Source: an uncultured Rhizobiaceae bacterium (GTDB taxonomy: Bacteria > Pseudomonadota > Alphaproteobacteria > ATCC43930 > CGMCC-115725). From it: a stretch of 37,620 bases of DNA. The notes beneath the pieces are model-generated. The model saw only the letters and a program-made list of their open reading frames with translations, had not been told where the DNA came from and made no database searches. Both the position numbers and the translations under genes were made by a program. Shown here piece by piece: positions 18,921 through 37,070 of this stretch (position 1 is the first letter of the stretch; every line of letters begins with the position of its first letter). The DNA is taken from NCBI GenBank assembly GCA_964391905.1, contig CAYMNX010000524.1, forward strand, positions 1 to 37,620. Reading direction: 5' to 3'.

Positions 18921-19594
18921 CGATGACACACCGAGCAGTCCGACAGCCTTGCGGGATGGATGCGATAAAGCGTCATGAGCTGTTCGCCCGAGGGCGTGTC
19001 GGCCGTGCGATGCCAGTCGGTATCGAAGACGGCATCGCGCGGCCGCAGATGCGGCGCTGGATTGCGATGGCAATCGAGGCACCAGCTCATATAGAGACTG
19101 GTCACCTTCTTCGTCAGCGGCATATCGGCGACATCGCCATGGCATTCGCTGCAGCCGACACCCTTCGCGACGTGAATGCTGTGATCGAAATAGACGTAGT
19201 CAGGGAGGGCATAGACGCGGTTCCAGCGCAACGGCACCTTTTGCGCGAGACTCTGCCGCACCGGTTGCAGAACCGATGCGTTGGTCCAGATCTGCGAATG
19301 GCAAGTCATGCAGATCTGCGTTGCGGGCATGCCCGCATTCGACGAGATCTCCACGGAGGTATGGCAATAGCGGCAATCAATGCCCAGGCCGCCGACATGA
19401 TGTTGGTGACTGAAGGGAACGGGCTGTGGCGGGGTGAAGCCGATTGCGGTCGTATAGCTGGTATTTGGGACGATCCATATCAGAGAAATGAGACCGATGC
19501 CGATGCCGCCGGCGACAATGATGCCTGCCGCCATGAAAAGATTTGCCCTCGGTCCGAATGTGGCGGCCACGGCACGAGTCCCTCCCACCGGCAT
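18917..19594 (-). CDS. actA: Alternative Complex III subunit ActA (membrane-anchored pentaheme cytochrome c)
   Basis: 225-aa ORF with an N-terminal TM (LFMAAGIIVAGGIGIGLISLIWIV) and five CxxCH sites: CRYCH, CMTCH, CSECH, CLDCH and CSVCH. Confidence 0.9.
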   Translation of the reverse strand: MPVGGTRAVAATFGPRANLFMAAGIIVAGGIGIGLISLIWIVPNTSYTTAIGFTPPQPVPFSHQHHVGGLGIDCRYCHTSVEISSNAGMPATQICMTCHSQIWTNASVLQPVRQSLAQKVPLRWNRVYALPDYVYFDHSIHVAKGVGCSECHGDVADMPLTKKVTSLYMSWCLDCHRNPAPHLRPRDAVFDTDWHRTADTPSGEQLMTLYRIHPARLSDCSVCHR

Positions 19595-23333: not shown

Positions 23334-23450
23334 TTAAAAGGCTCCTCATGAAATCGCAATCAAAGCTAAAGTGGAGCGGGATCGCCAGGCCGCTTGAAAG
23401 CGCGCCGACCACATCGAAGCAATGCGCGGTCGAAAGCAGAGGAGGAAACC

Positions 23451-24428
23451 ATGAGCGAAATTCATGCACCAGGCCGATTCGTCGGCGCGCTGGCAATCGC
23501 GTTGTGCGGCCTATTTTCGGCATCGGTCGTGTCGGCCGCGGGCTCTATCACCGTCGGGAAGGCTGATGCGAACTCGACGGCATTCTTGCCGGTGCACGTC
23601 GGCGACCGGCTTGGGCTCTTCAAAAAGCATGGTGTCGACCTGAAGATCGCCGATTTCACCGGCGGCAGCAAGCTGTCGCAGGCCATGACGGCCGGCAGCG
23701 TCGATATCGGCCTTGGCGCCGGAACCGAGATGGCGCTCACGGCCAAGGGCGCTTCGACACTTGCCGTCTGCAATATCATGTCGCCCATCGTGATCATCGG
23801 CATCGCCGTTCCCTGGGAGTCGCCCATCCGCGCAATCGATCAGCTCAAGGGCAAGAGGATCGGGATATCGAGCCCCGGCTCGCTCACCGATTGGCTTGCG
23901 AAGCAACTCGCACAGCACCAGGGATGGGGACCGAAGGGCGTGGAACCCGTCGCTATCGGCAACGGCGCTGCCGCGACGATCGCGGCATTTCGCACCAATG
24001 CGATCGACGCCGATATCGCCGTCACCTCGAATATTTTCAATTGGGAAGAAAAGAAGGAAGGGCGGTTCCTTATTTCGGCCACGAGCTTCGTCGGCAATAT
24101 TTCCGCTGGCACGATCTACGCGACCCAGCATCTGATCGCGGACGATCCCGACACGCTAAAGAGATTCCTCGCCGCCTGGCTGGAGACGATCGACTATCTG
24201 GCCGCACATAAGGCGGAGACGGTCAAGATCGAAAGCGACGTCACGGGTTATTCCGAAGGCGTGATGACAAAGGAATACGACCTCACAGCCAGCAAGTTCA
24301 GCAAGGACTGCAAATTCGATGCGGAGTCGCTCGCCAACCTCAAGCGGGCTTTCGTCGATCAGAAACTCGTCGACACGGTACCCGACATGTCGAAGCTCTA
24401 TACCGAGGCGTTCCTACCAAGCCGCTAG
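23451..24428 (+). CDS. ABC transporter substrate-binding protein, NMT1/THI5-like (NitT/TauT type), orphan
   Basis: Track ORF 23394..24428 trimmed to ATG 23451, which is preceded by AGGAGGA (23440-23446). The signal peptide is MSEIHAPGRFVGALAIALCGLFSASVVSAAG. Type-2 periplasmic binding motifs are FLPVHVG..GLFKKHGVDLKIADFTGGSK and LKGKRIGISSPGSLTDWL. No cognate permease or ATPase gene is adjacent. Confidence 0.85.
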   Translation: MSEIHAPGRFVGALAIALCGLFSASVVSAAGSITVGKADANSTAFLPVHVGDRLGLFKKHGVDLKIADFTGGSKLSQAMTAGSVDIGLGAGTEMALTAKGASTLAVCNIMSPIVIIGIAVPWESPIRAIDQLKGKRIGISSPGSLTDWLAKQLAQHQGWGPKGVEPVAIGNGAAATIAAFRTNAIDADIAVTSNIFNWEEKKEGRFLISATSFVGNISAGTIYATQHLIADDPDTLKRFLAAWLETIDYLAAHKAETVKIESDVTGYSEGVMTKEYDLTASKFSKDCKFDAESLANLKRAFVDQKLVDTVPDMSKLYTEAFLPSR

Positions 24429-24994: not shown

Positions 24995-26089
24995 CTACGC
25001 CGCGGCGGCGCGACGTAGCGGCACGAAGTGGTTGCCCTTCGAGATCGGGCTCAGCGTGTCGGCGATGCGGCGGAAGCTGTCGCCGCCATCCTCGCTCAGA
25101 TAGACCGTGCCATCCGTGTCGCCGAGCAAGAGGCTGTAGCCGCCCGGCCAGCAAGCGACGCTCATCGCTTCGATATTGCACGGCGCGGTTTCGGGAATAC
25201 CGTTGCTGAGCAGCTCCCATTGCCCGCCGCCATCGCGGCTGCGCAGGATCGCGGTGCCGGCATTGTGGGATCGCCGCCAAGCGCCGGGATGATCGGCCGC
25301 GCCCGACATGAAGAGGGTCTTCTCGTCGGGCGACAGCGCAATGTGATCGGGATAGGCGAGGCGGAAGCTTTCATCGGTCATCCGTTGCCAATGCTCGCCG
25401 CCATCCTCGCTGCGATAGGAACCGCAACCCGTGGTCATGAAGAGACGCTGCGGCTGCGACGGCACCACGAGAATCTGATGCAGATCCTTGAAGGCGCGAT
25501 CCTCGGGCCGCGAATAATCCGTGAGCTCGCGCCAGCTCTCGCCGCCATTGCGGGTCTCCAGCAGCGCCCCTTGCTCGATCGCGGCGAAGAAATGCTGCGG
25601 ATCGCGGGGATCGAAGGCGAGCATCTTGGTATGCGCGATATGTGGCGGCGCCGGAAAAGTCCAATCCTTGTTCTTTTGCTCGCCGATCGCCGGCAGCTCG
25701 CGCCAGCTCTGGCCGCGATCGAGGCTCCTGAACAACGAGGCCGGCTCGGTGCCGGCATAGATAACGAGTTGGCCGTTATCGACGACCGTGCCGAGCGTAT
25801 AAATATCGCGCAGCCTCAGGCCGTGGTCGCGCGCTTCCCAATTCGTTCCATCGGCGCTCCAGAAGACGCCGTCGCCATGCGTACCGGCGAGAATGCCGGC
25901 TCCATCGGGCAGCACGACCATAGTGCTGATGTGATGGCCATCGAGAGTGGTCGCGGCCAGCCGCCACGGCGCAGCCTTCGCGGCACGTTCCAGGATCGCG
26001 ACGCCCGTCGTGGTCGCGACGAACAAGCGGCTTGGCCGTGTGGCGCCGTTAAAACGGCTCTGACCATTCGGCGAGAGACATGCATCCAT
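24995..26089 (-). CDS. Cytoplasmic BNR/Asp-box repeat beta-propeller protein (sialidase-like / Ycf48-like fold), function unknown
   Basis: Track ORF 24995..26266 trimmed to ATG 26089, which is preceded by GGGAGG. There are six Asp-box-like repeats (S-x-D-x-G-x-x-W type): SADGTNWEA, SLDRGQSWREL, TRNGGESWREL, SEDGGEHWQRM, SRDGGGQWELL and SEDGGDSFRRI. No signal peptide is present. Confidence 0.8.
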   Translation of the reverse strand: MDACLSPNGQSRFNGATRPSRLFVATTTGVAILERAAKAAPWRLAATTLDGHHISTMVVLPDGAGILAGTHGDGVFWSADGTNWEARDHGLRLRDIYTLGTVVDNGQLVIYAGTEPASLFRSLDRGQSWRELPAIGEQKNKDWTFPAPPHIAHTKMLAFDPRDPQHFFAAIEQGALLETRNGGESWRELTDYSRPEDRAFKDLHQILVVPSQPQRLFMTTGCGSYRSEDGGEHWQRMTDESFRLAYPDHIALSPDEKTLFMSGAADHPGAWRRSHNAGTAILRSRDGGGQWELLSNGIPETAPCNIEAMSVACWPGGYSLLLGDTDGTVYLSEDGGDSFRRIADTLSPISKGNHFVPLRRAAAA

Positions 26090-26211
26090 GACGCCCTCCC
26101 TTGGAAGACGAAACCCGGAATTCCCAGGACAACTCTCGTTATTTGAGTCGATACTCTCGCTTTTTGAGCCCTGTGGCAAGCCGGGCGCGGGGCGCATCTG
26201 ACACGCGGGGG

Positions 26212-26994
26212 TTATGGCGAGGTCGACGCCAGTTGCTGCGCAGCCCGGATCAGCTTTTTGAGGCAACGCTGAACCAGGTCTCGATCGGCTCGGCCTGCCG
26301 GAATGGCGATGGAAAGCGCCGCAATCGCTCGGCCGCCAACACTGATCGGAACGGCGACGATCGGCATCTGTGCCGTTGCCTTCGCCGGATTGGCAAGCAA
26401 CGATCTCGATTTATCGGCGCGCTCGCGAATCATCCGCGCCTCGGGCGAAGTCGGGTCGAGACATTCGGCCTTCATGTATCGCGCGAGATCGTCGTCGTCG
26501 AAGGTCGACAAGATGGCAAGGCCCGCCGCCGATTCGTGCAGCGGCGCATAAACGCCGATCGTCGGCGTTTCGATGATGCCTTGACGGCTCATGACCTTGT
26601 CGATGTTGAGAACCGAATTTTCATGCCGCAGCGCAAGGACGACCGTCTCATTCAAGGCATCACGCAGGCGCAGCATGATCGGGAGTGCGCGGCGGCGCAG
26701 CTCGTTGGAGCAAAGGATCGCATCCGCACATTGAAGCGCGAAAAAGCCGAGCTCGTAGGGTGCCCCCGGGGTGGGCTGATCGAGGATCTTCGCATCGACG
26801 AGCGTCGACAAGATCCGGAATGCCGTCGCCTTGTGTATGCCCGTCCTATCCGAAATATCCCGCAAGCTCAGATTGGCATTCGCTTCGGTGAAGCAGGAGA
26901 GAATGTCGATGGCGCGGTCGATAACGCGCACGCCCGCGCGCTGCTTTCGATCGGGCGGTAGGACGGCGTCCCGATATGAGGTCGCTTTCGCCAA
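26212..26994 (-). CDS. IclR family transcriptional regulator (second of a tandem pair)
   Basis: 260-aa ORF. The N-terminal wHTH is VIDRAIDILSCFTEANANLSLRDISDRTGIHKATAFRILSTLVDAKIL. The IclR effector domain shows LNETVVLAL...GVYAPLHESAAGLAIL. The start lies 8 nt downstream of the preceding IclR gene stop. Confidence 0.9.
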   Translation of the reverse strand: MAKATSYRDAVLPPDRKQRAGVRVIDRAIDILSCFTEANANLSLRDISDRTGIHKATAFRILSTLVDAKILDQPTPGAPYELGFFALQCADAILCSNELRRRALPIMLRLRDALNETVVLALRHENSVLNIDKVMSRQGIIETPTIGVYAPLHESAAGLAILSTFDDDDLARYMKAECLDPTSPEARMIRERADKSRSLLANPAKATAQMPIVAVPISVGGRAIAALSIAIPAGRADRDLVQRCLKKLIRAAQQLASTSP

Positions 26995-27002
26995 AGTCGC
27001 TC

Positions 27003-27797
27003 CTACGGGCTGGAACCCGATGTCATCGCATAGCCCAAGCGGCGAGAGATCCGCTGTGCGCCTTCGATCGCCAGATCGATCGAGACATCGCGCAGCGCAT
27101 CGCTCAAGCGAGAGAGCGGAAAGGTGATCGTCAAAGCCGCGACGATCTCGCCGGTATAGGATCGAATCGGGGCCGATGATGAAAAGCTTTCCTTCGTGAT
27201 CTCGGCGCGCGCGGTCAGATACCCGTTTCGGCGCGATTTTCGAACATCGGACCAGATGCGGACGGGATCGGTGACGGTATCGTATCCATAATTGACGAGC
27301 TTCACCCGCTTGAGATAGCGCGCGATCTCGTCATCGCTCAGCCCGGCGAGCATGGTGCGGCCCGACGAGCCGACATGAAGCGGCGTCTCGTCGCCGATCT
27401 CGCTCACACGGCGTATCGGCTGCGTGCTGACGAGGCATTCGACGACGATGCGTCGATCGCCGCTTTTCACCGCAACCATGATCGTCTCGTTGAGCTGCTC
27501 ACGCATCCAGCGCAGGACGGGGAGGGAGGCCGTGCGAATATCGATATGGCTGCGTTTGCAATCGGCAAGGCGCAGCCACTCCGGCCCGAGTGTCCAGCCA
27601 TCGCCGCTGCGCGCGAGGAGATGGCGGTTCTCGAGCGTGGTCACGATCTTCACCGCCGTGCGAAGCGGGATCTCCGAAAGCCGCGCGATCTCGCGAAGCT
27701 CGAGCGTCGATCGCGTGGGCGTGAAGAGGGCGCAAATGCGGGCCAGCCGCTCGACGGCTTCGACGGTGTACAGATCGCGGGCGACGCTTTGCTTCAT
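27003..27797 (-). CDS. IclR family transcriptional regulator (first of a tandem pair)
   Basis: 264-aa ORF. The wHTH is AVERLARICALFTPTRSTLELREIARLSEIPLRTAVKIVTTLENRHLL. The effector domain shows LNETIMVAV...IGDETPLHVGSSGRTMLAGL. It is divergent from the transporter operon. Confidence 0.9.
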   Translation of the reverse strand: MKQSVARDLYTVEAVERLARICALFTPTRSTLELREIARLSEIPLRTAVKIVTTLENRHLLARSGDGWTLGPEWLRLADCKRSHIDIRTASLPVLRWMREQLNETIMVAVKSGDRRIVVECLVSTQPIRRVSEIGDETPLHVGSSGRTMLAGLSDDEIARYLKRVKLVNYGYDTVTDPVRIWSDVRKSRRNGYLTARAEITKESFSSSAPIRSYTGEIVAALTITFPLSRLSDALRDVSIDLAIEGAQRISRRLGYAMTSGSSP

Positions 27798-27867
27798 CTT
27801 AAGTCACATCCCGATGTCACGCGCGCGCATGCCTCGATTGGGCAAGGGAGCCAGCGGACGCAACAAC

Positions 27868-27897
27868 TTGACGGCGCGCGCCGTAGGCTCGTATCAT
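27868..27897 (+). promoter_or_regulatory. Candidate sigma70-type promoter of the LivJ-type transporter/enzyme operon
   Basis: TTGACG (27868-27873), an 18-nt spacer, then TATCAT (27892-27897), about 50 nt upstream of ATG 27949. Confidence 0.45.
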
Positions 27898-27910
27898 GAT
27901 CAAAAATAAG

Positions 27911-27935
27911 ATCGTGTTTCATTTTACGACACGAT
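27911..27935. promoter_or_regulatory. Inverted repeat ATCGTGT-N11-ACACGAT: candidate IclR operator
   Basis: Perfect 7-bp arms at 27911-27917 and 27929-27935 flank an AT-rich 11-nt spacer (ttcattttacg). The repeat lies between the candidate -10 box and the GGGAGGAAGG ribosome-binding site of the first operon gene. Confidence 0.4.
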
Positions 27936-27948
27936 GGGAGGAAGGCAA

Positions 27949-29193
27949 ATGGCAGAGCGTCATGCATCTCGACACGCTCCGCGCGAGCGCCCGTCATCCG
28001 GGTTGACCCGGCGTCGTGTTCTTCAGAACGCGACCCTGGGCGGCGCGGCGCTCGCCGTCGGCCTTTCCGCGCCCGCCATCCTTGCTGAGACGCGCGCGCC
28101 CATTCGGCTCGGCGTCCTCAACAGCTTCACCGGCGCCCAGGCTTACAATGCGAACGACAACGTCAACGGCATGAGCCTCTACTTCGACCGCATCGGCTGG
28201 ACGATTGCGGGCCGAAAGATCGAGATGATCAAGGAGGACGATCAATTCAACGCGCAGATCGGCCTCGAGAAGACGAAGAAATTCGTCCAGAGCGACCATG
28301 TCGATATGATCGTCGGGCCGCAGGCGAGCAATGTGGCGATGGCGCTCTTGAATTTCGTCAAGCAAACCAAGAGCTTTCTCGTCGTCTCGGGCGCAGGAAG
28401 CGATCAGATCACGTGGGAGCGCATTCCCTATCTGTTTCGCACGACGATCACCACCTGGCAGCTCTGCACGCCGATGGGCCAATGGGTCCATGACAATGTT
28501 GCGAAAGAGGTGGTCGCGACGGGGTCGGACTACATTGCCGGCCGCGATACGATTCGCGAATTCGAGATCGCGTTCACGGCGAAGGGGGGAAAAGTTGCGC
28601 AAGAGATCTATCCGCCGCTCGGAACTACCGATTTCAGCGTCTATCTGACCCAGATCGCCGCCTCCGGCGCGGGCGCGAGCTTCAACTTCTATACCGCCGC
28701 CGACGCCGTTCGGTTCATTCGCCAATATGCCGAGCTCGGTTTGAGCGACCGCGTGCGATTGACGGGATTTTCGGCGCTAATCGACGGCAATACGCTGAAG
28801 GCCGTGGGTCGCGCCGCCATGGGCGTGATCACACCGCAGATCTACACCACCTCTCTGGACACGCCTGTGAATTTGGATTTCGTCTCCGCCTATCGCGATC
28901 ACTATAAGAGCGACCCGACCACCTTTTCCGACTACGGCTTTGTGACCGCGCGCGTGATCGACGAGGCGATCAAAGCGGTCGATGGCGATACCACCAATAA
29001 GGACAAGCTCGCGGAAGCGATGGTCAAGGTCTCCTTCGATGCGCCGCGGGGGCCTTTCCGCTTCGATCCCGTAACGCATCATCCGATCCAGAACGTCTAT
29101 ATCTGCGAAGTGCGCGAGGTCGACGGGCAGCTCGCCATCAAGGATTTCATCACCATCAAGGATGTGCGCGATCCCGGCGTCAAAAACTTTTAG
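27949..29193 (+). CDS. ABC transporter substrate-binding protein, LivJ/Peripla_BP_6 type, with Tat-like signal
   Basis: Track ORF 27934..29193 trimmed to ATG 27949, with RBS GGGAGGAAGG at 27936-27945. ATG 27934 lies inside the inverted repeat. The signal sequence is SGLTRRRVLQNATLGGAALAVGLSAPAILAET. The family pattern is IRLGVLNSFTG...IVGPQASNVAMAL...TGSDYIAGRD. Confidence 0.88.
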   Translation: MAERHASRHAPRERPSSGLTRRRVLQNATLGGAALAVGLSAPAILAETRAPIRLGVLNSFTGAQAYNANDNVNGMSLYFDRIGWTIAGRKIEMIKEDDQFNAQIGLEKTKKFVQSDHVDMIVGPQASNVAMALLNFVKQTKSFLVVSGAGSDQITWERIPYLFRTTITTWQLCTPMGQWVHDNVAKEVVATGSDYIAGRDTIREFEIAFTAKGGKVAQEIYPPLGTTDFSVYLTQIAASGAGASFNFYTAADAVRFIRQYAELGLSDRVRLTGFSALIDGNTLKAVGRAAMGVITPQIYTTSLDTPVNLDFVSAYRDHYKSDPTTFSDYGFVTARVIDEAIKAVDGDTTNKDKLAEAMVKVSFDAPRGPFRFDPVTHHPIQNVYICEVREVDGQLAIKDFITIKDVRDPGVKNF

Positions 29194-29244
29194 CGGCGTA
29201 TCGGGGCGTTCTGGTTCTCCATCGAAGCATCGAGGTCCACGAGG

Positions 29245-30405
29245 ATGAAGCTCAGTACAGACCGAATTCTGACGACCCATGTCGGCAGCCTGCCTCGTCC
29301 GCAGTTTTTGTTCGATCTCATGGCGGCGCGCGAGGCCGGAAAACCGAGCGATGCGGCCGCGTTCGAGGCGGCGTCCGCGAAAGCGGTCGAAGACATCGTC
29401 GCGAAGCAGCGCGAGAGCGGCATCGACATCGTCAATGATGGCGAGATGAGCAAGCTGTCCTATACCTTTTATATCAAGGGTCGCGTCGCCGGCGTCGGTA
29501 GCAGCCCCGCCGCGATCGAGAAGAGCCGTAAGGTCATGGTCGGCCGCGATCGGTTGGAGCATCCGGATTTCCAGATGCGCGAGCAGCCCTTCGATCTGTT
29601 CGCCTATCCCGCCTGCATCGGGCCGTTGAGCTATGCCGACCGAAAGCCGCTCGAGCAAGATCTGGCGCATCTCAAGGCCGCCGTCGCCAAGGTCAAGCCG
29701 ACCGAAGCCTTCATGACCTGCGCGTCGCCCGGCGTGCTGACGAAATTCGTGATCGACACCTATTACAACGACGAGGACGCCTATATCGAAGCGCTCGCGA
29801 AGGTCATGAAGACCGAGTACGAGGCGGTCGTCGCGGCCGGCTTCGTTCTTCAGATCGACTGTCCCGACCTGGCTTCCGCGCGCAACAATCAATACCGGGA
29901 TAAGACGGACGAGGAGTTCCTGCGCATTGCGCGGCGCAATGTCGAGCTGCTCAACGCGGCGACCGCCAACATACCGCCCGAATCGATGCGCATGCATATT
30001 TGCTGGGGCAATTACGAAGGCCCGCATACCCATGACATTCCATTCGCGAAAATCGCCGAGGTCGTGTTCTCGGCGCGGCCTTCAGCCGTGAGCTTCGAGG
30101 GCGCCAATCCGCGGCACGCGCATGAATGGGAGGATCTCAAGGAGATCCGCATTCCCGACAACAAGGTTCTGATCCCCGGCATGATCGATTCGACGACGAG
30201 CTTCGTCGAGCATCCGCGCCTCGTGGCGCAGCGCATCTGTCGCTATGCCGATCTTGTCGGGCGTGAGCGCGTCATCGCCGGCGCCGATTGCGGCTTTTCA
30301 ACGGTCGCCGCCGCAAAGACGAAAATCGTGCCGAGTATCGTATGGGCGAAATTCAAGGCGCTGGCCGAAGGAGCGGCGATGGCGAGCGAGCGGCTCTGGC
30401 GCTAG
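29245..30405 (+). CDS. Cobalamin-independent methionine synthase (MetE) C-terminal-domain-like protein; putative Zn-dependent alkyl/methyl transferase
   Basis: 386-aa ORF starting MKLSTDRILTTHVGSLPRP. Candidate Zn ligands sit in MetE-like contexts: RMHICWGN (H-x-C), VSFEGAN (Glu) and GADCGFS (Cys). It is a single barrel, about half the length of true MetE. Confidence 0.85.
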   Translation: MKLSTDRILTTHVGSLPRPQFLFDLMAAREAGKPSDAAAFEAASAKAVEDIVAKQRESGIDIVNDGEMSKLSYTFYIKGRVAGVGSSPAAIEKSRKVMVGRDRLEHPDFQMREQPFDLFAYPACIGPLSYADRKPLEQDLAHLKAAVAKVKPTEAFMTCASPGVLTKFVIDTYYNDEDAYIEALAKVMKTEYEAVVAAGFVLQIDCPDLASARNNQYRDKTDEEFLRIARRNVELLNAATANIPPESMRMHICWGNYEGPHTHDIPFAKIAEVVFSARPSAVSFEGANPRHAHEWEDLKEIRIPDNKVLIPGMIDSTTSFVEHPRLVAQRICRYADLVGRERVIAGADCGFSTVAAAKTKIVPSIVWAKFKALAEGAAMASERLWR

Positions 30406-30516
30406 CCAAATCGATCCGGCGCGGCGACCTCGATCTGGTCTCGGCCGTCGCGCCTCGGCGAAGGGCCGGATGGCAACCGGCCGTGACAACGGAGCGGACG
30501 GGGACCGCACGCGACG

Positions 30517-32361
30517 ATGGAATTTCTGCTCGTTCAGCTCCTGAACGGCCTCGGCTATGCGATGCTGCTGTTCCTGATGGCGGCGGGCCTCTCGCTGATC
30601 TTCGGTCTCATGAATGTGGTGAGCCTCGCGCATGGCTCATTCTTCATGCTTGGCGCGTTCTTCGGCCTCGCGATTTTCGGGACGACGCACAGCTACTGGC
30701 TCGCGCTTTTACTGGCGCCGCTGCCGACGGCGCTGATCGGCGCCATCATGGAGCGGTTGTTCTTGCGGCAACTCTATCGTCGCGGCCACCTCGACCAGGT
30801 GTTGCTGACCTTCGGCTTCACCTTCGTCTTCTTCGATCTCGTGCGCACGATTTGGGGAAGCGACATTCGTACCCTCCCGGCGCCCGAGCTGCTGCAAGGC
30901 GTCCTGCGTATCACCGATGGCGCGTTCTCGACCTATCGGCTGTTCCTCATCGCTCTCGGCGCGGCGCTGGCGATGTTGCTGTGGCTCTTCATCGAGCGCA
31001 GCCGTCTCGGCGCCATGGTCCGCGCCGGAGTCGATGACAGCGCGATGGCGGCCGGGCTTGGCGCCGATATCCCGGCGCTCTTCACCGGAGTCTTCAGCGT
31101 CGGCGTCGCGCTCGCGGCGCTCGGCGGCGTCGCGGCCGGGCCGGTGCTCGGGCTTTATCCAGGCATGGATTCCGACATCCTCATTCCGGCCTTCATCGTC
31201 ATCGTGATCGGCGGCATGGGCAGCTTGCGCGGCGCCTTCATCGGCAGCTTGTTGATCGGCGAGGCCGATACCTTCGGGAAAGCCTATTTCCCGTCGCTGG
31301 CGCTGTTTCTCATCTATCTCGTCATGGCCGTTGTTCTGCTCGTGCGACCCCAGGGCATTTTCGGCATTGTCCACGGCGAAACGCCGGGCCGTCCCGTGCT
31401 CGCCCCACCGCGCGCAGCGGGAGCCACGATGCGGATTCGCATCGCCGGCCTCATCGTCATAGCAACGATGCTGCTCTATCCTCTCTTCGTCGAAGATTAT
31501 CCGCGGACGCTGCTTGCCGAGATCTATATCTTTGCCGTCTTCGCCATGAGCCTCGACGTGCTGCTCGGCTATACGGGGCTCTTATCGCTCGGCCATGCGG
31601 CTTTTTTTGGACTCGGCGCCTATGCCGTCATCGTGCTTTCGGCGCTCTTCAATCTTGATGCGTGGCTCGGCGTTCTCGTCGGCGTTTTTCTCGCCGCGCT
31701 CGCCGCGGCGATCATCGGCTTCTTCTGCGTCCGTGCCAGCGGGGTGACGCTCTTGATGCTGACCTTGGCATTTTCGCAGCTCATCTACACGGTTGCGCTC
31801 AAATGGCGCGACGTGACCGGCGGCTCGGACGGCATCGGCGTTCCCGAAAAGCCGGGTTTCTTTGGCTTGGATCTCAACGATTCGCTCGTGATGTACTACC
31901 TCACGCTCGCCTTTTTCCTCTTGTGTTATTGGGGGCTGAGGCGGCTGACCCAATCGCCGCTCGGTCATGTGCTCGTCGGCATTCGCGAAAACGAGCCGCG
32001 GATGCGCGCGATCGGCTATTCAACCCCGCGCTACAAGCTCCTGGCCTTCACGATCAGCGGCACGGTGGCGGGCCTCGCCGGCGGAATCTATGCCGTCTAC
32101 AACGGATTTATCTCGCCGGACGCGGTGCAGTGGAGCGCTTCGGGCGACATCCTCATCATGGTGATGTTGGGCGGCACCGGCACATTGATCGGCCCGGCGC
32201 TGGGGGCCGGCATCTTTTTGCTGATGAAGAATCTGGTGAGCAGCTACAGTCAGCACTGGATGCTGATCATCGGCATCGTTTTCATCGCCTGCGTCCTCTA
32301 TTTTCCCGGCGGCGTCTGGGGCGCGATACGCACGCTGCAGCGCGAGGAGAGGTTACGGTGA
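30517..32361 (+). CDS. Fused branched-chain-amino-acid-type ABC permease (LivH-like N-half + LivM-like C-half)
   Basis: 614-aa polytopic ORF. The N-half MEFLLVQLLNGLGYAMLLFLMAAGLSLIFGLMNVVSLAHGSFFMLGAF is LivH-like. The C-half LSLGHAAFFGLGAYAV...GGSDGIGVP is LivM-like. Confidence 0.9.
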   Translation: MEFLLVQLLNGLGYAMLLFLMAAGLSLIFGLMNVVSLAHGSFFMLGAFFGLAIFGTTHSYWLALLLAPLPTALIGAIMERLFLRQLYRRGHLDQVLLTFGFTFVFFDLVRTIWGSDIRTLPAPELLQGVLRITDGAFSTYRLFLIALGAALAMLLWLFIERSRLGAMVRAGVDDSAMAAGLGADIPALFTGVFSVGVALAALGGVAAGPVLGLYPGMDSDILIPAFIVIVIGGMGSLRGAFIGSLLIGEADTFGKAYFPSLALFLIYLVMAVVLLVRPQGIFGIVHGETPGRPVLAPPRAAGATMRIRIAGLIVIATMLLYPLFVEDYPRTLLAEIYIFAVFAMSLDVLLGYTGLLSLGHAAFFGLGAYAVIVLSALFNLDAWLGVLVGVFLAALAAAIIGFFCVRASGVTLLMLTLAFSQLIYTVALKWRDVTGGSDGIGVPEKPGFFGLDLNDSLVMYYLTLAFFLLCYWGLRRLTQSPLGHVLVGIRENEPRMRAIGYSTPRYKLLAFTISGTVAGLAGGIYAVYNGFISPDAVQWSASGDILIMVMLGGTGTLIGPALGAGIFLLMKNLVSSYSQHWMLIIGIVFIACVLYFPGGVWGAIRTLQREERLR

Positions 32362-33101
32362 GCGTGCTGCGCACCGCGAATCTTCGCAAGGCCTTCGGCC
32401 GGCTGGTCGTCACGAACGGCCTCAATCTGACGGTCGAGCCGGGCGAGCGGCACGTCATCATCGGGCCGAACGGTGCCGGGAAGACCAGCCTCATCAATCA
32501 GATCGGGGGCCAGCTCCGGCCCAGCTCCGGTCGCATCCTGCTGAACGATCGCGACATTACCGGCCACGCGCCGGACCGGATCAACCGCATGGGGATCGCG
32601 CGCACGTTCCAGCGCAACAACCTCTTTCAGAATCTCAGCGTCGTCGAGAACCTTCGTCTCGCGGTTCAGGCGCGGCGCGGCAAAGCGCTCGACGTCCTTA
32701 CCCCCGTTCATCGCCTCGATGCACTGCGCGAGCGGGCCGAGGCGCTCAAGCGCCTCGTCCATATCGATCGGGATGGTCTCTATCCCGTGCGTCATCTCTC
32801 CTATGGCGAGCAGCGGCAGCTCGAGATCGGCATGGCGTTGGCGAGCGAGCCCCAACTGCTGCTGCTCGACGAGCCGACGTCCGGGATGTCGCCGGCCGAA
32901 ACGGAAAGAATGATCGAGCTGATCGGCGGGTTGCCGAGAAGCCTTTCCATTCTCATGATCGAGCACGACATGAACGTCGTCTTCTCGCTCGCCGATCGCG
33001 TCACTGTTCTTTATTACGGGGAAGCGCTCGCCAGCGGCAGCTGTGCCGAGATCCAGGCGAATGAGCGCGTGCGCGATGTCTATCTCGGCGTGGTGCATTA
33101 G
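32358..33101 (+). CDS. ABC transporter ATP-binding protein (LivG type)
   Basis: This is the in-frame part of track ORF 31662..33101. GTG 32358 forms a GTGA overlap with the permease stop. Walker A is GPNGAGKTS, the signature is LSYGEQRQLE and Walker B is LLLLDEP. Confidence 0.9.
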   Translation: MSVLRTANLRKAFGRLVVTNGLNLTVEPGERHVIIGPNGAGKTSLINQIGGQLRPSSGRILLNDRDITGHAPDRINRMGIARTFQRNNLFQNLSVVENLRLAVQARRGKALDVLTPVHRLDALRERAEALKRLVHIDRDGLYPVRHLSYGEQRQLEIGMALASEPQLLLLDEPTSGMSPAETERMIELIGGLPRSLSILMIEHDMNVVFSLADRVTVLYYGEALASGSCAEIQANERVRDVYLGVVH

Positions 33102-33104
33102 ACG

Positions 33105-33800
33105 ATGCTCGAGCTCCAGAACGTCAACGCTTATTACGGCGACAGCCATATCCTGCGCGACGTCTCGCTCGCCGTCAAAGACGGCCAGGCGGTGTGCTTG
33201 CTCGGTCGCAACGGCGCGGGAAAGACCACCACCATCAACACCATCATGGGATATGTGAAGCCGCGCTCGGGACGCGTCCTTTTCGGCGACCGCGACATTA
33301 CCGCGCTGCCGCCCCATGCCGTCGCGCGATTGGGCATCGGCTTCGTTCCGCAAGAGCGCGGCATTTTTCCGAGTCTGACGGTTCGGGAGAATCTGACGGT
33401 CTTCGCAAGGGGCGGGAATGGCGCGCGATGGACGCTCGCCAGCGTCTACAAGCTCTTTCCGGCACTCTACGAGCGCGAGCGCAATCTCGGATTTCAGCTC
33501 TCGGGCGGCGAGCAGCAGATGCTCTCGATTGCCCGGGCGCTGATGCTCAACCCATCTTTCATGCTGCTCGACGAGCCGTCGGAAGGCCTCGCGCCGCTGA
33601 TCGTGCGCGAGATTGTCGACATCATGAACCGGTTGAAGCGCGAGGGCCTTGCTATCCTGCTGGTGGAGCAGAATCTGCATACGGCTCTGGCCGTCGCCGA
33701 TCTTCATCACGTGATGAACAAGGGCGAGATACGCTTCACGGGATCGTCGGCGGAGCTTGAAACAAACGACTTCGTCTTGCAGAACTACTTGAGCGTTTAG
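33105..33800 (+). CDS. ABC transporter ATP-binding protein (LivF type)
   Basis: 231-aa ORF starting 3 nt after the previous stop. Walker A is GRNGAGKTT, the signature is LSGGEQQML and Walker B is FMLLDEP. Confidence 0.9.
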   Translation: MLELQNVNAYYGDSHILRDVSLAVKDGQAVCLLGRNGAGKTTTINTIMGYVKPRSGRVLFGDRDITALPPHAVARLGIGFVPQERGIFPSLTVRENLTVFARGGNGARWTLASVYKLFPALYERERNLGFQLSGGEQQMLSIARALMLNPSFMLLDEPSEGLAPLIVREIVDIMNRLKREGLAILLVEQNLHTALAVADLHHVMNKGEIRFTGSSAELETNDFVLQNYLSV

Positions 33801-33861
33801 CGGCGTAGGAGCGACGGCTCCAGTCGCGCCCAAGCCATTCGATGAGCATCAGGAGGTTGTC

Positions 33862-34662
33862 ATGGTTTCTCTCGCGGCCGACAAGCAAGCGACGCGCCGG
33901 ATCAAGACGCGGAGCCGTGATCGCGCCGGCGAAGCGGTGGTGCGCCGGCTCGATGCCGAGGTGGATGCTTTTGTCAACCGCGCCCGCTTCTTTCGCGAGC
34001 CCTTGACCCGCGGCCGCGCGCAGATGTTCGTGCTGCAGCACCGCCAGAACACGCGGCAGCGCAACTCGGTCTTGAAGCTGCGGGTCGCGACCAACTGTCC
34101 CGATTGGGAGACGCGGCTGCGGATCATCGGCGCTTGCAGCGAGGAGGTGATTGCGGATCACGCGCATGGCGGCGGCCGTCCGCATTGGGCCATTCTCGAA
34201 GAGCTGGGGCTGCGGATCGGCTTGGCGCGCGCGCAAATGCGCCAGGCGCCGCTTCTCGCCTCGACCCAGCTATGCTGGCTCGCCTGGGAAGCGTTGATGT
34301 CAAACCGGCATTGGCTCGAAGGGCTGATCGCCAATACCTGCGCCGAGCGCACCAATATTCCGGGCTATGGCACGGGGCTGATGAAGAAGCGCGGCTGGTT
34401 CGGCCTCGAGCGCGAGCGCTGGGGCAAGCTCTTCAAGCTCGGCGATGACGAGCTCGAATTCTTCGAGCTCCACGAGGAGGCCGATATCGAGCATTCCAAT
34501 CTCGGCTGGCAGACCGTCGCACGCTTCGCGGCGCAGCTTGGCGTCGCCGATCAGGTGGTCGAGGCGTGCCGCATCAACCTCATGGTCTGGGAAAACTATC
34601 TCGACGGCATCGCGGCCGGCGGCGATGCGCTCGATCGCCGTCGTGAGCCGATTTATGTATGA
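33862..34662 (+). CDS. Heme-oxygenase-like fold, iron-containing redox enzyme family protein (PqqC/TenA/HDO-like)
   Basis: 266-aa ORF with AGGAGG 5 nt upstream of ATG 33862. It is all-helical, with candidate carboxylate/His metal-ligand pairs in CSEEVIADHAHGG, NTCAERTN and FELHEEADIEHSNLG. The assignment is from motif recollection, at superfamily level only. Confidence 0.7.
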   Translation: MVSLAADKQATRRIKTRSRDRAGEAVVRRLDAEVDAFVNRARFFREPLTRGRAQMFVLQHRQNTRQRNSVLKLRVATNCPDWETRLRIIGACSEEVIADHAHGGGRPHWAILEELGLRIGLARAQMRQAPLLASTQLCWLAWEALMSNRHWLEGLIANTCAERTNIPGYGTGLMKKRGWFGLERERWGKLFKLGDDELEFFELHEEADIEHSNLGWQTVARFAAQLGVADQVVEACRINLMVWENYLDGIAAGGDALDRRREPIYV

Positions 34663-34666
34663 GCCG

Positions 34667-34691
34667 AGCCCGGTGGAATAGGAGCCGGGCT
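34667..34691. terminator. GC-rich hairpin between convergent genes (possible bidirectional terminator)
   Basis: AGCCCGG (34667-34673) pairs with CCGGGCT (34685-34691) around an 11-nt loop. It starts 5 nt after stop 34662 and overlaps the Rieske gene stop (34690-34692). There is no U-tract on either strand. Confidence 0.3.
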
Positions 34692-35958
34692 ACCACTTGC
34701 AAATGAGATCTTCGGCGAAGGTCTCGCGCCAGTTCCCGCCCGGCGGCACGAGACCGTCATAGGGCCGGACGTTGCGATGGGTTTGAGGATCGGCGCCGGG
34801 CGGGGTTTCACCGCGCTCCACAGCCGCGGTCGCATCGAGGAGCATGCGTCGCAAGGTGACGATCGCGCGGTCCGTCGAGCCGAGATACTCCTTCGAGCGG
34901 TCGGTGATCGGCCCCATGCCTTCCTGGATTGCGAAATCCTGAGTGTTGACGCCGTCGATCCCGGTATAGGTGCGGGTTCGCTGAAGCTCGCGGTCGATCA
35001 GGTAATCGTTTGACGGGTTCCGCTTCAGCTTGAATGTGCCGGGAATGAGATCCTGCCGACCGCGACCGGCGTGGTGCTCATGCGCTTCGAATTGTTCCTC
35101 CGAAATCGGAACAGCCGGGTCGGCGCTATATTGCCAATTATAGACATTGGTCTGCTCGTCATCGATCGGGACCCAGATATGACCATCGAGCTGCGGCACC
35201 GCGTTGCGGCCGGCGAAGCCCTGAATGCCGCCGCGCATCTGCTGGAACGGCATGACGTAGTGATAGAGCCTGACATAGCTTCCGTCCGCGCCGGCCTGAC
35301 GCGTCGACACGTAGTAATAACCGTAATCGGTGCGCTCGACATCGAGGCGCGGCGCGCGATCGCGCAGGCGCAGCTGCAACGTGTCGCCGAGCTTGTGATT
35401 GTGAAGATAGGAGGAATGGGCCGTGTCGAGGCCGCCCTCGACCGCTTGCAGATAATTGCAAGCCTCATAGGTCTTCGATGCATAGCGATGCGTCGCGGGC
35501 GCGCGCGTCCATTCATAATCGGGCGGCGCCGGCATGGTTTCCTTTGGCCCGAGATAAGCCCAGACGATGCCCGCTTTCTCGATCGTCGGATAGGCGGTGA
35601 TCTTGATTCTCGACTTCATCGGGCTGGCTTCGGGTTCGGACGGCAAGTCGACGCAGTTTCCGTCGACGTCGAATTTCCAGCCATGATAGACGCAGCGAAT
35701 TCCACATTCCTCATTGCGGCCAAAGAACAAAGGCGCGCGGCGGTGCGGGCAATAGGCATCGACCAAGCCAACACGCCCCGCCGTGTCGCGGAAGGCGATG
35801 AGATCTTCGCCGAGAAGTCGAACGCGGATCGGTGCGCAATCGCGTTCCGGCAGCTCTGTCGCCAAGCACGCCGGCTGCCAATAGCGGCGGAAAAGCTCGC
35901 CCGCGGGCGTGCCGCGGCTCACCCGAACCAGACGCTCGTTGTCAGCCCGCGACAGCAT
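34690..35958 (-). CDS. Rieske [2Fe-2S] non-heme-iron oxygenase alpha subunit, phthalate-family (class IA-like)
   Basis: Track ORF 34690..36063 trimmed to ATG 35958, which is preceded by GGGAGG. The Rieske motif is CPHRRAPLFFG...CVYHGWKF. The N-terminus MLSRADNERLVRVSRGTPAGELFRRYWQP and the NDYLIDRELQR segment resemble phthalate/vanillate-type oxygenases. Confidence 0.88.
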   Translation of the reverse strand: MLSRADNERLVRVSRGTPAGELFRRYWQPACLATELPERDCAPIRVRLLGEDLIAFRDTAGRVGLVDAYCPHRRAPLFFGRNEECGIRCVYHGWKFDVDGNCVDLPSEPEASPMKSRIKITAYPTIEKAGIVWAYLGPKETMPAPPDYEWTRAPATHRYASKTYEACNYLQAVEGGLDTAHSSYLHNHKLGDTLQLRLRDRAPRLDVERTDYGYYYVSTRQAGADGSYVRLYHYVMPFQQMRGGIQGFAGRNAVPQLDGHIWVPIDDEQTNVYNWQYSADPAVPISEEQFEAHEHHAGRGRQDLIPGTFKLKRNPSNDYLIDRELQRTRTYTGIDGVNTQDFAIQEGMGPITDRSKEYLGSTDRAIVTLRRMLLDATAAVERGETPPGADPQTHRNVRPYDGLVPPGGNWRETFAEDLICKW

Positions 35959-36104
35959 CGGCGCCTCCCGTGATAGGTTTTTGAGACGCATGATCCTAAA
36001 CCTTGCGCGCGAGAGCACGCAAGCCGTGCGGGAGCGGTTGACAGCGCGAAGGGCGAGGCGCAACGTCCTACAAAGCCATAAAAAAGCTACACCCGAGGAT
36101 CGCC

Positions 36105-37070
36105 ATGACGCGAAATGTCAGACTCGCCGTCCTGGTATGCGTCGCCGTTCTGGCGCTCGCAGCAACGCCGGCGTTTGCCGAAACGCTGCGCGTCGGCACT
36201 GCCGTCCCGAACAGCTTCACCTTCCTGCCGCTGCGGCTCGGCATCACCAACGGGTTCTATGCGAAGGAAGGGCTCGACATCGCGGTGACGGATTTCCAGG
36301 GCGGTGCCAAGGTCCATCAAGGCATGATGGCCGATGTGATCGATATGGCGGTCGCGGGCGCCACGGACTTTCAATTCCTTGCCAAAGGGTCGCCTGAGCT
36401 CGCGGTGGCGGCGAAGAGCAGCCGGCCGCCGATCGGCGTCATCGTGCGTTGGGACTATCCGGGCAAGACCGCCGATGACCTCAAAGGCGCGAAGCTCGGC
36501 ATCACCACCGTCGGTTCGCTGACCGAATGGCTGATGCATCGGCTGATGCGGCAGAAAGGCTGGAGCCAAAGCGACGTGACGCTGGTGCCGATCGGCGGAA
36601 GCTTCGAAAGCCAGCTCGCCTTGATGACGACGGGCGAGATCGACGGATGCCTCGGCTCGCCCGGCATCGGGCTCGAGCTCGCTCTCACGAAGCGCGGCCG
36701 ACTCTTGCTGCCGTCTTTCGATGTCGGGAGCGATTTCCTCGCCGAGGTGATCTTCGCGTCGAAGAAGATTCTGGGGAAGGATCCCGATGGCGTGCGGCGC
36801 TTTCTCAAGGCATGGTTCGAAAACATCGCCTGGATGCGCGCGCATAAGGATGAAGCCGTCGAGATGATAAGGGCCTACACGAAATTCTCGCGCGGCGTCG
36901 AAAGCCAGGAATACGATCAACAAATGCCCTACCTCTCGAGCGACGGGAAATTCCACGCGGCGGCCCTTACGGGCTTGCAGCAGGCCTTCGTCGAAATGGG
37001 TACGTTCGAGAAGCCGCCGGAGATGGCGCAGTTCTACACCGAGACATATTTGCCGCGAACGCAGCCATAG
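36105..37070 (+). CDS. ABC transporter substrate-binding protein, NMT1/THI5-like (NitT/TauT type), orphan; paralog of 23451..24428
   Basis: 321-aa ORF with signal peptide MTRNVRLAVLVCVAVLALAATPAFA. It is colinear with the 23451 protein: FLP..G, DF.GG.K, AKG, DLKG...GI...GSLT.WL, GW, DPD..RFL.AW.E.I...HK.E.V, EYD, KF.A..L..L..AFV and YTE..LP. Confidence 0.85.
   Translation: MTRNVRLAVLVCVAVLALAATPAFAETLRVGTAVPNSFTFLPLRLGITNGFYAKEGLDIAVTDFQGGAKVHQGMMADVIDMAVAGATDFQFLAKGSPELAVAAKSSRPPIGVIVRWDYPGKTADDLKGAKLGITTVGSLTEWLMHRLMRQKGWSQSDVTLVPIGGSFESQLALMTTGEIDGCLGSPGIGLELALTKRGRLLLPSFDVGSDFLAEVIFASKKILGKDPDGVRRFLKAWFENIAWMRAHKDEAVEMIRAYTKFSRGVESQEYDQQMPYLSSDGKFHAAALTGLQQAFVEMGTFEKPPEMAQFYTETYLPRTQP

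Follow-up and report, generated by a model that had tools for sequence, protein, structure and literature searches.

A conserved IclR-linked ABC import cassette with a built-in MetE-like enzyme in an uncultured Rhizobiaceae bacterium

We analysed a stretch of 37,620 nucleotides from an uncultured Rhizobiaceae bacterium (GenBank assembly GCA_964391905.1, contig CAYMNX010000524.1, forward strand), which is called the window in the following, and in particular a span of 12 kb (24995-37070) within it. For this span, a first-pass annotation made from the sequence alone had proposed an IclR-gated import unit of the ATP-binding cassette (ABC) type with a built-in MetE-like enzyme, and in addition a pathway formed by this enzyme, a heme-oxygenase-like (HO-like) protein and a Rieske oxygenase. 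Judged by comparison with related loci, seven genes of the span (26212-33800) are one real multi-gene unit, while the remainder appears as a juxtaposition of independent units. The seven-gene cassette consists of two IclR-type regulator genes that are divergent from an operon encoding a binding protein, the MetE-like enzyme, a fused permease and two ATPases. It is a variant of the familiar substrate-inducible ABC import operon, with a built-in enzyme from a large uncharacterised branch of the methionine-synthase superfamily. The import unit with its MetE-like enzyme is real and conserved across the cassette copies. Of the six-gene plus-strand unit that had been proposed, five genes are conserved as an operon, but the HO-like gene lies outside the cassette. 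The cassette comprises the following features:

26212-26994, minus strand: IclR-family regulator 2 (Pfam IclR_C, 3.8e-19; HTH_IclR, 7.6e-15)
27003-27797, minus strand: IclR-family regulator 1 (Pfam IclR_C, 3e-29; HTH_IclR, 21 bits with a cut-off of 22)
27868-27931, plus strand: promoter with sigma-70-like boxes and candidate operator (AT-rich dyad)
27949-29193, plus strand: periplasmic binding protein of the HAAT family with twin-arginine translocation (Tat) signal (Pfam Peripla_BP_6, 2e-79)
29245-30405, plus strand: single-domain MetE-like predicted zinc enzyme, 386 aa (PF01717 Meth_synt_2, 2.5e-9)
30517-32361, plus strand: fused permease of two halves, LivH/UrtB-like and LivM/UrtC-like, 614 aa (two BPD_transp_2 stretches)
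32358-33101, plus strand: LivG/UrtD-like ABC ATPase with GTG start (Pfam/NCBIfam)
33105-33800, plus strand: LivF/UrtE-like ABC ATPase, the final gene of the cassette (Pfam/NCBIfam)

The domain calls stem from Pfam and NCBIfam profile scans with curated cut-offs, applied to the cassette genes, their neighbours and 27 larger open reading frames (ORFs) elsewhere in the window. All genes named in the first-pass annotation were recovered at the same positions and their family assignments agree with Pfam and NCBIfam. Its finer details also hold: the GTGA start/stop overlap of permease and first ATPase gene (32358-32361) is found in the sequence, the ORF ends leave the expected gap of 3 nt between the two ATPase genes (33101/33105), and the Tat signal of the binding protein contains the twin-arginine motif LTRRRVLQ. 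The start of the binding-protein gene is most likely at 27949, in accordance with the public gene call (414 aa), and not at 27934.

The cassette is also found in six other metagenome contigs, namely L081, L082, L172 and L169 and two further contigs that were seen as gene tables alone, one of which is partial. In L081, L082 and L172, which contain the nearest relatives of the MetE-like protein (80-88% identity), the layout is identical to that of the window, and the two contigs seen as gene tables display it as well. Identities of the individual components between the window and the other copies range from 51 to 88%. Orthologs of IclR regulator 1 are present in all cassette loci (64-74% identity), those of IclR regulator 2 lie beside the transporter in L081, L082, L169 and L172 (51-58%), and the orthologs of the fused permease share 72-85% identity in the cassette loci and 76% in a further locus, L170. 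The copy in L169 was found by anchoring the search on the binding protein (71% identity; MetE-like protein 80%). There, the five-gene operon is whole, while the IclR pair has moved downstream to the other end and is convergent with the operon. The genes around the cassette differ from copy to copy. The second ATPase gene is followed by an amidohydrolase gene in L081, by a BKACE fragment and an M16 peptidase gene in L082, by LysR and dihydrodipicolinate synthase (DHDPS) genes in L172, and by the HO-like gene in the window only. The upstream flanks vary as well, and the BNR and NMT1 genes of the window are absent from the other cassette copies, the BNR gene being unique to the window in comparison with L081, L082, L169 and L172. 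Since the same seven genes are retained after a rearrangement and in at least five different genomic surroundings, they can be regarded as a functional module. The first ATPase gene of L081 (13132-13870) seems to be broken, with a gene call of 143 aa and two tblastn pieces in different frames, and represents either a pseudogene or an assembly error.

The sister locus L170 (1914-7866) possesses orthologs of the permease and the ATPases (75-79% identity) and a binding protein with 60% identity in a different gene order. Its MetE-family enzyme (351 aa) is only 26% identical to the enzyme of the window and is MesD-like (3rpd, 2e-59), and no MesX/DUF1852 protein is present among the called genes of this locus. 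As L170 swaps in another member of the MetE superfamily, it can be argued that the transporter needs a MetE-type activity. It is also a hint at a possible use of imported methyl donors by enzymes of the MesD type.

The intergenic region between the IclR and binding-protein genes contains a single sigma-70-like match on the plus strand, TTGACG-18-TATCAT (-35 box at 27868-27873, -10 box at 27892-27897), and an AT-rich dyad block, AAAATAAGATCGTGTTTCATTTTACGACA, at 27903-27931. When the upstream regions of the binding-protein genes of five loci were aligned, two stretches, CTTGAC and GTTTCATTTTACGACA, showed no variation. AAAATGAGAT precedes GTTTCATTTTACGACA, and jointly both form an imperfect dyad (AAAATGA...TCATTTT) that starts approximately 6 bases past the -10 box. 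All four cassette loci for which DNA was at hand contain the 14-mer TTCATTTTACGACA, which the remaining 170 of the 174 fetched loci lack, and in L169 it is still located 5' of the binding-protein gene despite the relocated regulators. The IclR repressors HmgR and IphR are reported to bind at such a position, an AT-rich dyad just past the -10 box, whereas DesX overlaps this box (bioRxiv 10.1101/2020.07.27.224295). By analogy, the IclR proteins of the cassette would bind the conserved dyad at 27903-27931. A second candidate operator, the 7-bp inverted repeat ATCGTGT-N11-ACACGAT, was rejected, as it is not conserved beyond the window and is no rarer than expected by chance. Both IclR proteins carry the HTH_IclR and IclR_C domains, the former being slightly below threshold in regulator 1, and neither reached the cut-off of the equivalog models for PcaR/PobR, BhcR, IclR, KdgR and AllR. 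In one protein of the pair (27003-27797 and its orthologs in L082, L169 and L172), HTH_IclR is weak or undetectable and the effector domain is strong, which suggests a division of labour or a hetero-oligomer. Terminator-like sites were found neither in the internal gaps of the operon nor between 33800 and 33862. Because no such site follows the last ATPase gene, read-through into the HO-like gene, which is preceded by a good ribosome-binding site, is possible in this genome.

The relatives of the binding protein are informative with regard to the imported substrate. Its best matches in the PDB are 4zpj (5e-65), 4ey3, 4eyg and 4eyk (6e-57) and 4evq (2e-45), followed by 4f06 and 4evs (down to 2e-39). 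Urea-binding proteins (7s6e and 7s6f, 1e-20/1e-21), AmiC (2e-10) and the binders of leucine, isoleucine and valine (1e-9) come far behind, and by this measure the protein is nearer to the binders of benzoate derivatives than to those of amino acids or urea. We take 4ey3, 4eyg, 4eyk, 4evq and 4f06 to be binders of 4-hydroxybenzoate, vanillate and protocatechuate; the benzoate-derivative binding proteins behind these structures were reportedly described by Michalska and colleagues in 2012. The alignments with these HAAT proteins from R. palustris and Bradyrhizobium (4ey3, 4eyg, 4eyk, 4evq, 4f06, 4evs) are full-length over the range from 6e-57 to 2e-39, and 4ey3 has been deposited under the name of a "twin-arginine translocation pathway signal" protein, in agreement with the Tat signal of the binding protein studied here. 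To our knowledge, the HAAT systems for benzoate derivatives have separate LivH and LivM permeases and no embedded enzyme.

The closest homolog of the transporter in a cultured organism is located on plasmid pBB1 of Cupriavidus necator N-1 (L180, 1701-11301), with 46% identity for the binding protein and 62% for the ATPases. The apparent operon on pBB1, whose record carries no annotation, encodes an FAA-family hydrolase, an OCD/mu-crystallin protein, a cupin, the beta and alpha subunits of a ring-hydroxylating dioxygenase and a LysR regulator, and the transporter (binding protein, split permease and two ATPases) forms its distal part. C. necator N-1 is a tractable cultured system for this transporter family. 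A further indication comes from three plasmids of Sphingomonadales (L175, 6995-9287; L177, 6992-9262; L178, 6995-9285), which possess a triad of MetE-like, NTF2 and IclR genes, the MetE-like proteins being 46-49% identical to that of the window. The triad adjoins either a gene set comprising a tetrahydrofolate-dependent O-demethylase of the ligM/desA type, metF, purU, folD and the genes for the 4,5-cleavage of protocatechuate, or ferB. DesX, the IclR repressor of this region in strain SYK-6, is released by syringate and vanillate (bioRxiv 10.1101/2020.07.27.224295). The desA-desX/ligM-metF-ligH region hence shares with the cassette the same MetE-like subfamily, the link to an IclR protein and a possible tie to the one-carbon metabolism of methoxylated aromatics. 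It differs from the cassette by its NTF2-family partner, the absence of a transporter and the presence of a single IclR protein, which is 25-28% identical to those of the window; the DesX operator, TCTTCGTATATACGAAGA, bears no resemblance to the dyad of the cassette, and ligM and metF genes are absent from the window. The MetE-like and NTF2 genes of the Sphingomonadales (1128 and 390 bp) lie next to desX and, given their size and map position, might be vceA and vceB.

From three independent hints, namely the relatives of the binding protein, the dioxygenase operon of C. necator and the O-demethylation context in Sphingomonadales, we infer that the imported substrate is an aromatic acid, possibly a methylated one. 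The first-pass guess of a methylated or aromatic-acid substrate was a reasonable one in this respect.

The MetE-like enzyme retains the catalytic residues of its superfamily. In an alignment of 25 homologs (65-88% identity), the zinc ligands H251, C253, E285 and C349 are invariant, as are S15 (GSLP), E67 (DGE) and D205 (QIDCP). The zinc ligands correspond in the profile alignment to HICRGN/QCGF of 1ypx and HICYG/NCGM of 3rpd. S15, E67 and D205 are the equivalents of Ser433, Glu484 and Asp599 (E. coli numbering), and D205 aligns to Asp188 of 3rpd. In MetE and MesD, homocysteine is bound by this Ser/Glu/Asp triad through its carboxyl and amino groups (PMC7857596). The same catalytic residues are retained in relatives of only 46-49% identity. 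The AlphaFold model (predicted local distance difference test, pLDDT, 80.8; predicted template modelling score, pTM, 0.86) displays the catalytic (beta/alpha)8 barrel of MetE, and Foldseek retrieved 3rpd (6.5e-15) and 1xdj (1.5e-14) with template modelling (TM) scores of 0.69-0.72, while uroporphyrinogen decarboxylase, BHMT and MmuM are well behind the MesD and MetE barrels. Based on sequence and model, the protein is very probably a zinc-thiolate alkyltransferase that binds homocysteine or a similar amino-acid thiol. The conversion of homocysteine to methionine may be its reaction, but is a candidate function only.

The enzyme is distant from all curated methionine-synthase models. The match to PF01717 spans the profile positions 145-311 only, and no match was obtained to Meth_synt_1, the N-terminal barrel that binds folate and polyglutamate, so that the protein is not a canonical MetE of approximately 750 aa. 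Among the curated methionine-synthase models (NF003317, NF006589, NF004875 and others), the best score is 85 bits with a cut-off of 406. With a phmmer E-value of 6e-5 against 3rpd it does not qualify as a member of MesD/MesX either, and no DUF1852 (MesX) protein turned up among the scanned ORFs of the window. With the core synthases MesA to MesD and the C-terminal domain of MetE (Price, Deutschbauer & Arkin 2021, PMC7857596) the enzyme has in common the single (beta/alpha)8 barrel of approximately 340-390 aa without a folate-binding N-domain, the zinc ligands, the Ser/Glu/Asp triad, and 3rpd (MesD) and the T. maritima MetE as structural neighbours. It differs from them by an identity of only about 21% to 3rpd and about 20-25% to 1ypx, by scores below the curated cut-offs and by the absence of a MesX/DUF1852 or corrinoid-protein gene nearby. 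Moreover, its gene sits within an IclR-controlled ABC importer operon, a context that is not described for the Mes families. A literature search likewise revealed no description of this MetE-like subfamily or of an ABC operon containing one of its members. Paralogs of the MetE-like protein occur in tandem or as close pairs in L010, L015, L031, L036, L039, L053 and L067, with expansions of the family in soil Alphaproteobacteria, Rokubacteria, Binataceae and Acidobacteriota and further members on haloarchaeal plasmids.

On balance, we lean towards a cassette that imports a benzoate-type acid in an inducible manner and is coupled, through its embedded enzyme, to the zinc-thiolate transfer of an alkyl group, probably methyl. 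The IclR proteins would sit on the AT-rich dyad past the -10 box and keep the operon repressed as long as the substrate is absent. The transporter would then bring in an aromatic acid of the benzoate type, possibly methoxylated or otherwise methylated, and the zinc site of the co-expressed MetE-like enzyme would activate a homocysteine-like thiol for the transfer of an alkyl group, most likely methyl. This transfer would involve the imported compound or its immediate product, and uptake would thereby be coupled to the capture of methyl groups or to demethylation, with no need for folate or B12. Confidence in this model rests mostly on the modular architecture and much less on the chemistry. 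What we infer is that the IclR proteins bind the dyad, that the substrate is an aromatic acid, and of what kind the alkyl transfer is and which way it runs.

Several observations weigh against the model. The best NCBIfam matches of the transporter are the Urt models for urea and amides, though far below the cut-offs (UrtA 116 bits with a cut-off of 493, UrtB 196/250, UrtC 199/296, UrtD 224/304, UrtE 241/286). We rejected a urea or amide transporter, since all Urt models stay far under their cut-offs and the PDB ranking favours binders of aromatic acids. For the IclR proteins, an effector prediction from solved relatives gave generic similarity only. Signs of methionine-type regulation are missing, as no Rfam match indicative of a riboswitch or leader RNA was obtained upstream of the operon, neither in the window nor in the four cassette loci. 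In the wider MetE-like family, clustering of the ORFs within 7 kb revealed no neighbour family in more than 11 of 80 loci; the recurrent neighbours are generic catabolic genes (thiamine pyrophosphate (TPP) enzyme, short-chain dehydrogenase/reductase (SDR), TctC, aldo-keto reductase, cyclase, coenzyme A (CoA)-transferase). Some orthologous MetE-like genes (75% and 72% identity) stand on their own, and the binding protein of L171 (58-60% identity) has no MetE-like neighbour. As the cassette is known from approximately seven related contigs of uncultured soil bacteria, part of the synteny could be due to inheritance and not to selection. Finally, aryl methyl ethers donate methyl groups poorly unless a corrinoid or tetrahydrofolate takes part, so that there would be no chemical precedent for a direct O-to-S transfer. 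The donor could equally well be an aromatic onium compound, or the link could be indirect.

A bolder version of the model, in which the MetE-like enzyme moves a methyl group from an imported methylated aromatic acid directly to zinc-activated homocysteine and thereby yields methionine and the demethylated acid, so that environmental methyl groups are captured independently of folate and B12, is unlikely in our view; the donor may in this case be a methoxybenzoate like vanillate or syringate or an N-methyl pyridinium acid like trigonelline. It is conceivable, if rather doubtful, that the cassette serves methionine or methyl salvage from a non-aromatic onium donor (a sulfonium or quaternary-ammonium compound) by direct methylation of homocysteine. 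Chemically, onium compounds are able to donate methyl groups, the residues that bind zinc and homocysteine are all in place, a MesD-like enzyme substitutes in L170 where no MesX/DUF1852 was called, and transporters of the HAAT family also carry amino acids and amides. Such an arrangement would resemble mmuP-mmuM of E. coli, which we take to encode an S-methylmethionine permease and a zinc-dependent homocysteine S-methyltransferase, the importer being co-transcribed with the thiol methyltransferase. The likeness consists in an importer combined with a zinc thiol methyltransferase and in the imported compound as the direct methyl donor, but MmuM belongs to a different family (PF02574) and is only a remote Foldseek match (TM approximately 0.37-0.39), and MmuP is a single-component permease. 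Salvage from a non-aromatic donor is further at odds with the binding protein, which is far closer to binders of aromatic acids than to those of amino acids or urea, with the position of the homologous C. necator transporter within an aromatic dioxygenase operon, and with a regulation by IclR proteins instead of methionine or S-adenosylmethionine. This explanation and the proposed benzoate-type importer would agree with each other if the compound were an aromatic onium one, for instance trigonelline. It is also quite unlikely, that the zinc site activates another thiol (CoA or glutathione) or another nucleophile, for example in a VceA-like conversion of beta-keto aromatic acids. The large distance from the curated methionine synthases (85 bits versus 406) and the location of relatives among the catabolic genes listed above are compatible with such a role, as is the fact that the MetE fold can use other thiols, as epoxyalkane:coenzyme M (CoM) transferase does. 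When this lead was followed by tblastn of plasmids, only "methionine synthase II family" annotations were found among the 30 matches listed. The Sphingomonadales pair of MetE-like and NTF2 genes, 1128 and 390 bp, precedes a DesX-like IclR gene and may possibly include vceA, but the acetyl-CoA-dependent cleavage of beta-keto acids is more usually carried out by BKACE enzymes. In SYK-6, vceA maps to this position, and vceA together with vceB fit a 1.5-kb fragment. We give hardly any credence to the idea that the MetE-like gene is a passenger, inserted between the binding-protein and permease genes in one lineage without a functional tie. It is true that orthologs with 72-75% identity stand alone, that the cassette has been seen only in closely related contigs and that the gap of 111 nt before the permease gene exceeds the other junctions. 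However, the gene is kept in every copy including the rearranged L169, its flanking gaps contain no promoter- or terminator-like sites, and in L170 the orthologous transporter is independently combined with a different enzyme of the MetE family, the genes being arranged in another order.

A broader alternative is that the MetE-like, HO-like and Rieske enzymes all act on one imported compound under the control of the IclR pair, i.e. a single pathway with two iron oxidants and an alkyl transfer as proposed in the first pass. The three genes are adjacent, the HO-like gene has a good ribosome-binding site with no terminator-like site before it, a Rieske oxygenase for aromatic carboxylates would suit an importer of aromatic acids, and a Rieske gene of the LigXa_C type is located approximately 7 kb from the cassette in L169. 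In order to judge the conservation of the trio, we carried out neighbourhood searches anchored on each enzyme, which covered 82 MetE-like, 3 HO-like and 80 Rieske loci. Within 10 kb of the MetE-like relatives of 47-68% identity (80 genome loci), neither the HO-like protein nor the binding protein nor the permease has a homolog, and a Rieske homolog is found in one locus (L069; MetE-like protein 48% identical). The HO-like relatives (77-88% identity, on three long contigs) lie beside genes for lactate permease and UbiD, for isochorismatase and NMT1, and for UbiD, cupin and TauD, respectively. None of the 80 metagenome loci with Rieske relatives (47-76% identity) has an HO-like gene, the binding protein or the permease, the sole MetE-family match is 24% identical and about 8 kb off (L156), and no neighbour family occurs in more than 10 of the 80 loci. 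As all three surveys lack co-occurrence apart from L069 and L156, the trio is not conserved at any sampled evolutionary distance. In the cassette copies, the gene following the ATPases differs each time, even where the MetE-like proteins share 79-88% identity. The Rieske protein of L169 is only 43% identical and separated from the cassette by unrelated genes, and the Rieske gene of the window lies on the opposite strand with no reductase gene in the window. A common pathway is for these reasons very improbable, and the comparison of loci indicates that the trio is not a functional unit. The first-pass annotation itself had named missing neighbourhood conservation as one half of what would count against its proposal, and this is what the surveys revealed for the trio. 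More generally, catabolic-looking genes that are adjacent to each other, like the HO-like, Rieske and NMT1 genes, are often orphans in these gene-dense soil genomes, and adjacency alone does not define a pathway.

If the proposed coupling of benzoate-type import and alkyl transfer is true, the cassette would represent a new step of demethylation or methyl salvage, in which a zinc-thiolate enzyme acts on an imported compound and neither folate nor a corrinoid nor an oxygenase takes part. In addition, a function would be assigned to a very large family that carries the label "cobalamin-independent methionine synthase II family" but is otherwise unannotated; its members number in the thousands and come from soil Alphaproteobacteria, Rokubacteria, Acidobacteria and haloarchaea. 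The methyl source of the aerobic core methionine synthases like MesD has been raised as a question before (PMC7857596). In L170 the same transporter occurs together with a MesD-like enzyme, which offers a testable handle on it. Should direct methyl capture prove true, aerobic core methionine synthases may in general take their methyl groups from small-molecule donors, as the gene arrangement in L170 would suggest.

The genes of the 12-kb span that are not part of the cassette are the following:

24995-26089, minus strand: BNR/Asp-box beta-propeller protein (Pfam Sortilin-Vps10 and BNR)
33862-34662, plus strand: HO-like di-metal protein (PF14518 Haem_oxygenas_2, 30.3 bits with a cut-off of 28.9)
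34690-35958, minus strand: Rieske oxygenase alpha subunit of the phthalate family (Rieske and LigXa_C, 1.4e-41)
36105-37070, plus strand: NMT1-type binding protein, divergent from the Rieske gene (Pfam NMT1, 1.2e-25)

The HO-like protein possesses the ligand pattern E95, H102/H108, E162 and H204-x3-D208-x2-H211, which aligns to 9pj4. In a set of 24 members with 18-59% identity, E95, H108 (H102), E162, H204, D208 and H211 are at least 90% conserved. Its AlphaFold model (pLDDT 88) matches CADD, PqqC, BesC, PolF and UndA in Foldseek, and the seven-helix fold reaches TM scores of 0.66/0.80 to CtCADD. It thus shares the fold and the pattern E...H, E, H-x3-D-x2-H with CADD/4-aminobenzoate synthase, PqqC, BesC and UndA, but is only 13-18% identical to these known di-metal oxidases, and its score with TIGR04305, the model for the CADD-type 4-aminobenzoate synthase, is 24.4 bits with a cut-off of 200. 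The clade is small, with 163 representatives (E-value of 1e-3 or lower) among 1.84 billion proteins, most of them fragments. According to sequence and model, the HO-like gene encodes an orphan di-metal enzyme of the CADD/PqqC fold from a small soil clade without a fixed partner. A gene for a UbiD-family decarboxylase lies near the HO-like relatives in two of the three contigs (L083 and L086). The HO-like and Rieske genes of the window are convergent with 27 nt between their stop codons (34663-34692), and this gap contains a GC-rich 7-bp hairpin (AGCCCGG...CCGGGCT) without a T-tract, possibly a bidirectional terminator.

The Rieske protein aligns end to end with isophthalate dioxygenase (IPDO; 9ina, 2e-98) and phthalate dioxygenase (PDO; 7fjl/7fhr, approximately 1e-87 to 1e-90), and its motifs CPH...CVYH and DTAHSSYLH align with 9ina, 7fhr and 7fjl. 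The carboxylate of the substrate is anchored by S182, R207 and R244 in PDO and by R234 and H257 in IPDO (PMC12445078). In the HMMER alignments, S182 of PDO corresponds to a serine of AHSSY and R207 and R244 to the arginines of LQLR and SYVR, while the equivalent of H257 of IPDO is the histidine of DGHIWVPIDD. Since arginines of the PDO type and a histidine of the IPDO type occur together, the substrate cannot be read off. Judged by its closest relatives, the protein is an orphan alpha subunit that most likely dioxygenates an aromatic di- or polycarboxylate, with the reductase encoded elsewhere. It shares the CxH/CxxH Rieske and His-x4-His iron motifs with PDO and IPDO of Comamonas testosteroni KF1 (7fjl/7v25 and 9ina; PMC12445078), but differs from the systems of this strain in that no gene for a reductase, dihydrodiol dehydrogenase or decarboxylase is located near it in the window. 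NMT1-type genes are the commonest neighbours of the Rieske relatives (10 of 80 loci), yet they are not orthologous to that of the window. The Rieske gene and the divergent NMT1 gene are possibly a separate two-gene unit, with the NMT1 protein as uptake partner. Orphan NMT1 genes were also seen beside Rieske genes of several subfamilies, namely in the window (34690-37070 and 23394-24428) and in L086, L167 and L169.

The BNR propeller protein scores 83 bits with the NCBIfam model of the F510_1955 family, whose cut-off is 175. The rest of the window has the content of an ordinary chromosome and encodes an alternative complex III, a cytochrome oxidase, a major facilitator superfamily (MFS) transporter, an extracytoplasmic function (ECF) sigma factor, a glycosyltransferase, an AI-2E transporter and a second NMT1 protein. 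Genes for a reductase, a CoA ligase or a ring-cleavage enzyme were not found among the ORFs of the window scanned by profile, as had been stated in the first-pass annotation. The nearest named relatives of the window's proteins belong to Stellaceae, Xanthobacteraceae and other soil Alphaproteobacteria, and a nucleotide search of the 12-kb span against plasmids resulted in short matches to ABC ATPase genes only. Rfam gave a marginal match to the Twister-sister ribozyme at 17559-17648 on the plus strand (35.8 bits with a gathering threshold of 34; E-value 6e-4). It lies antisense within the ORF for a 1066-aa Fe-S subunit (15945-19145, minus strand) of the alternative-complex-III cluster and is probably due to chance.

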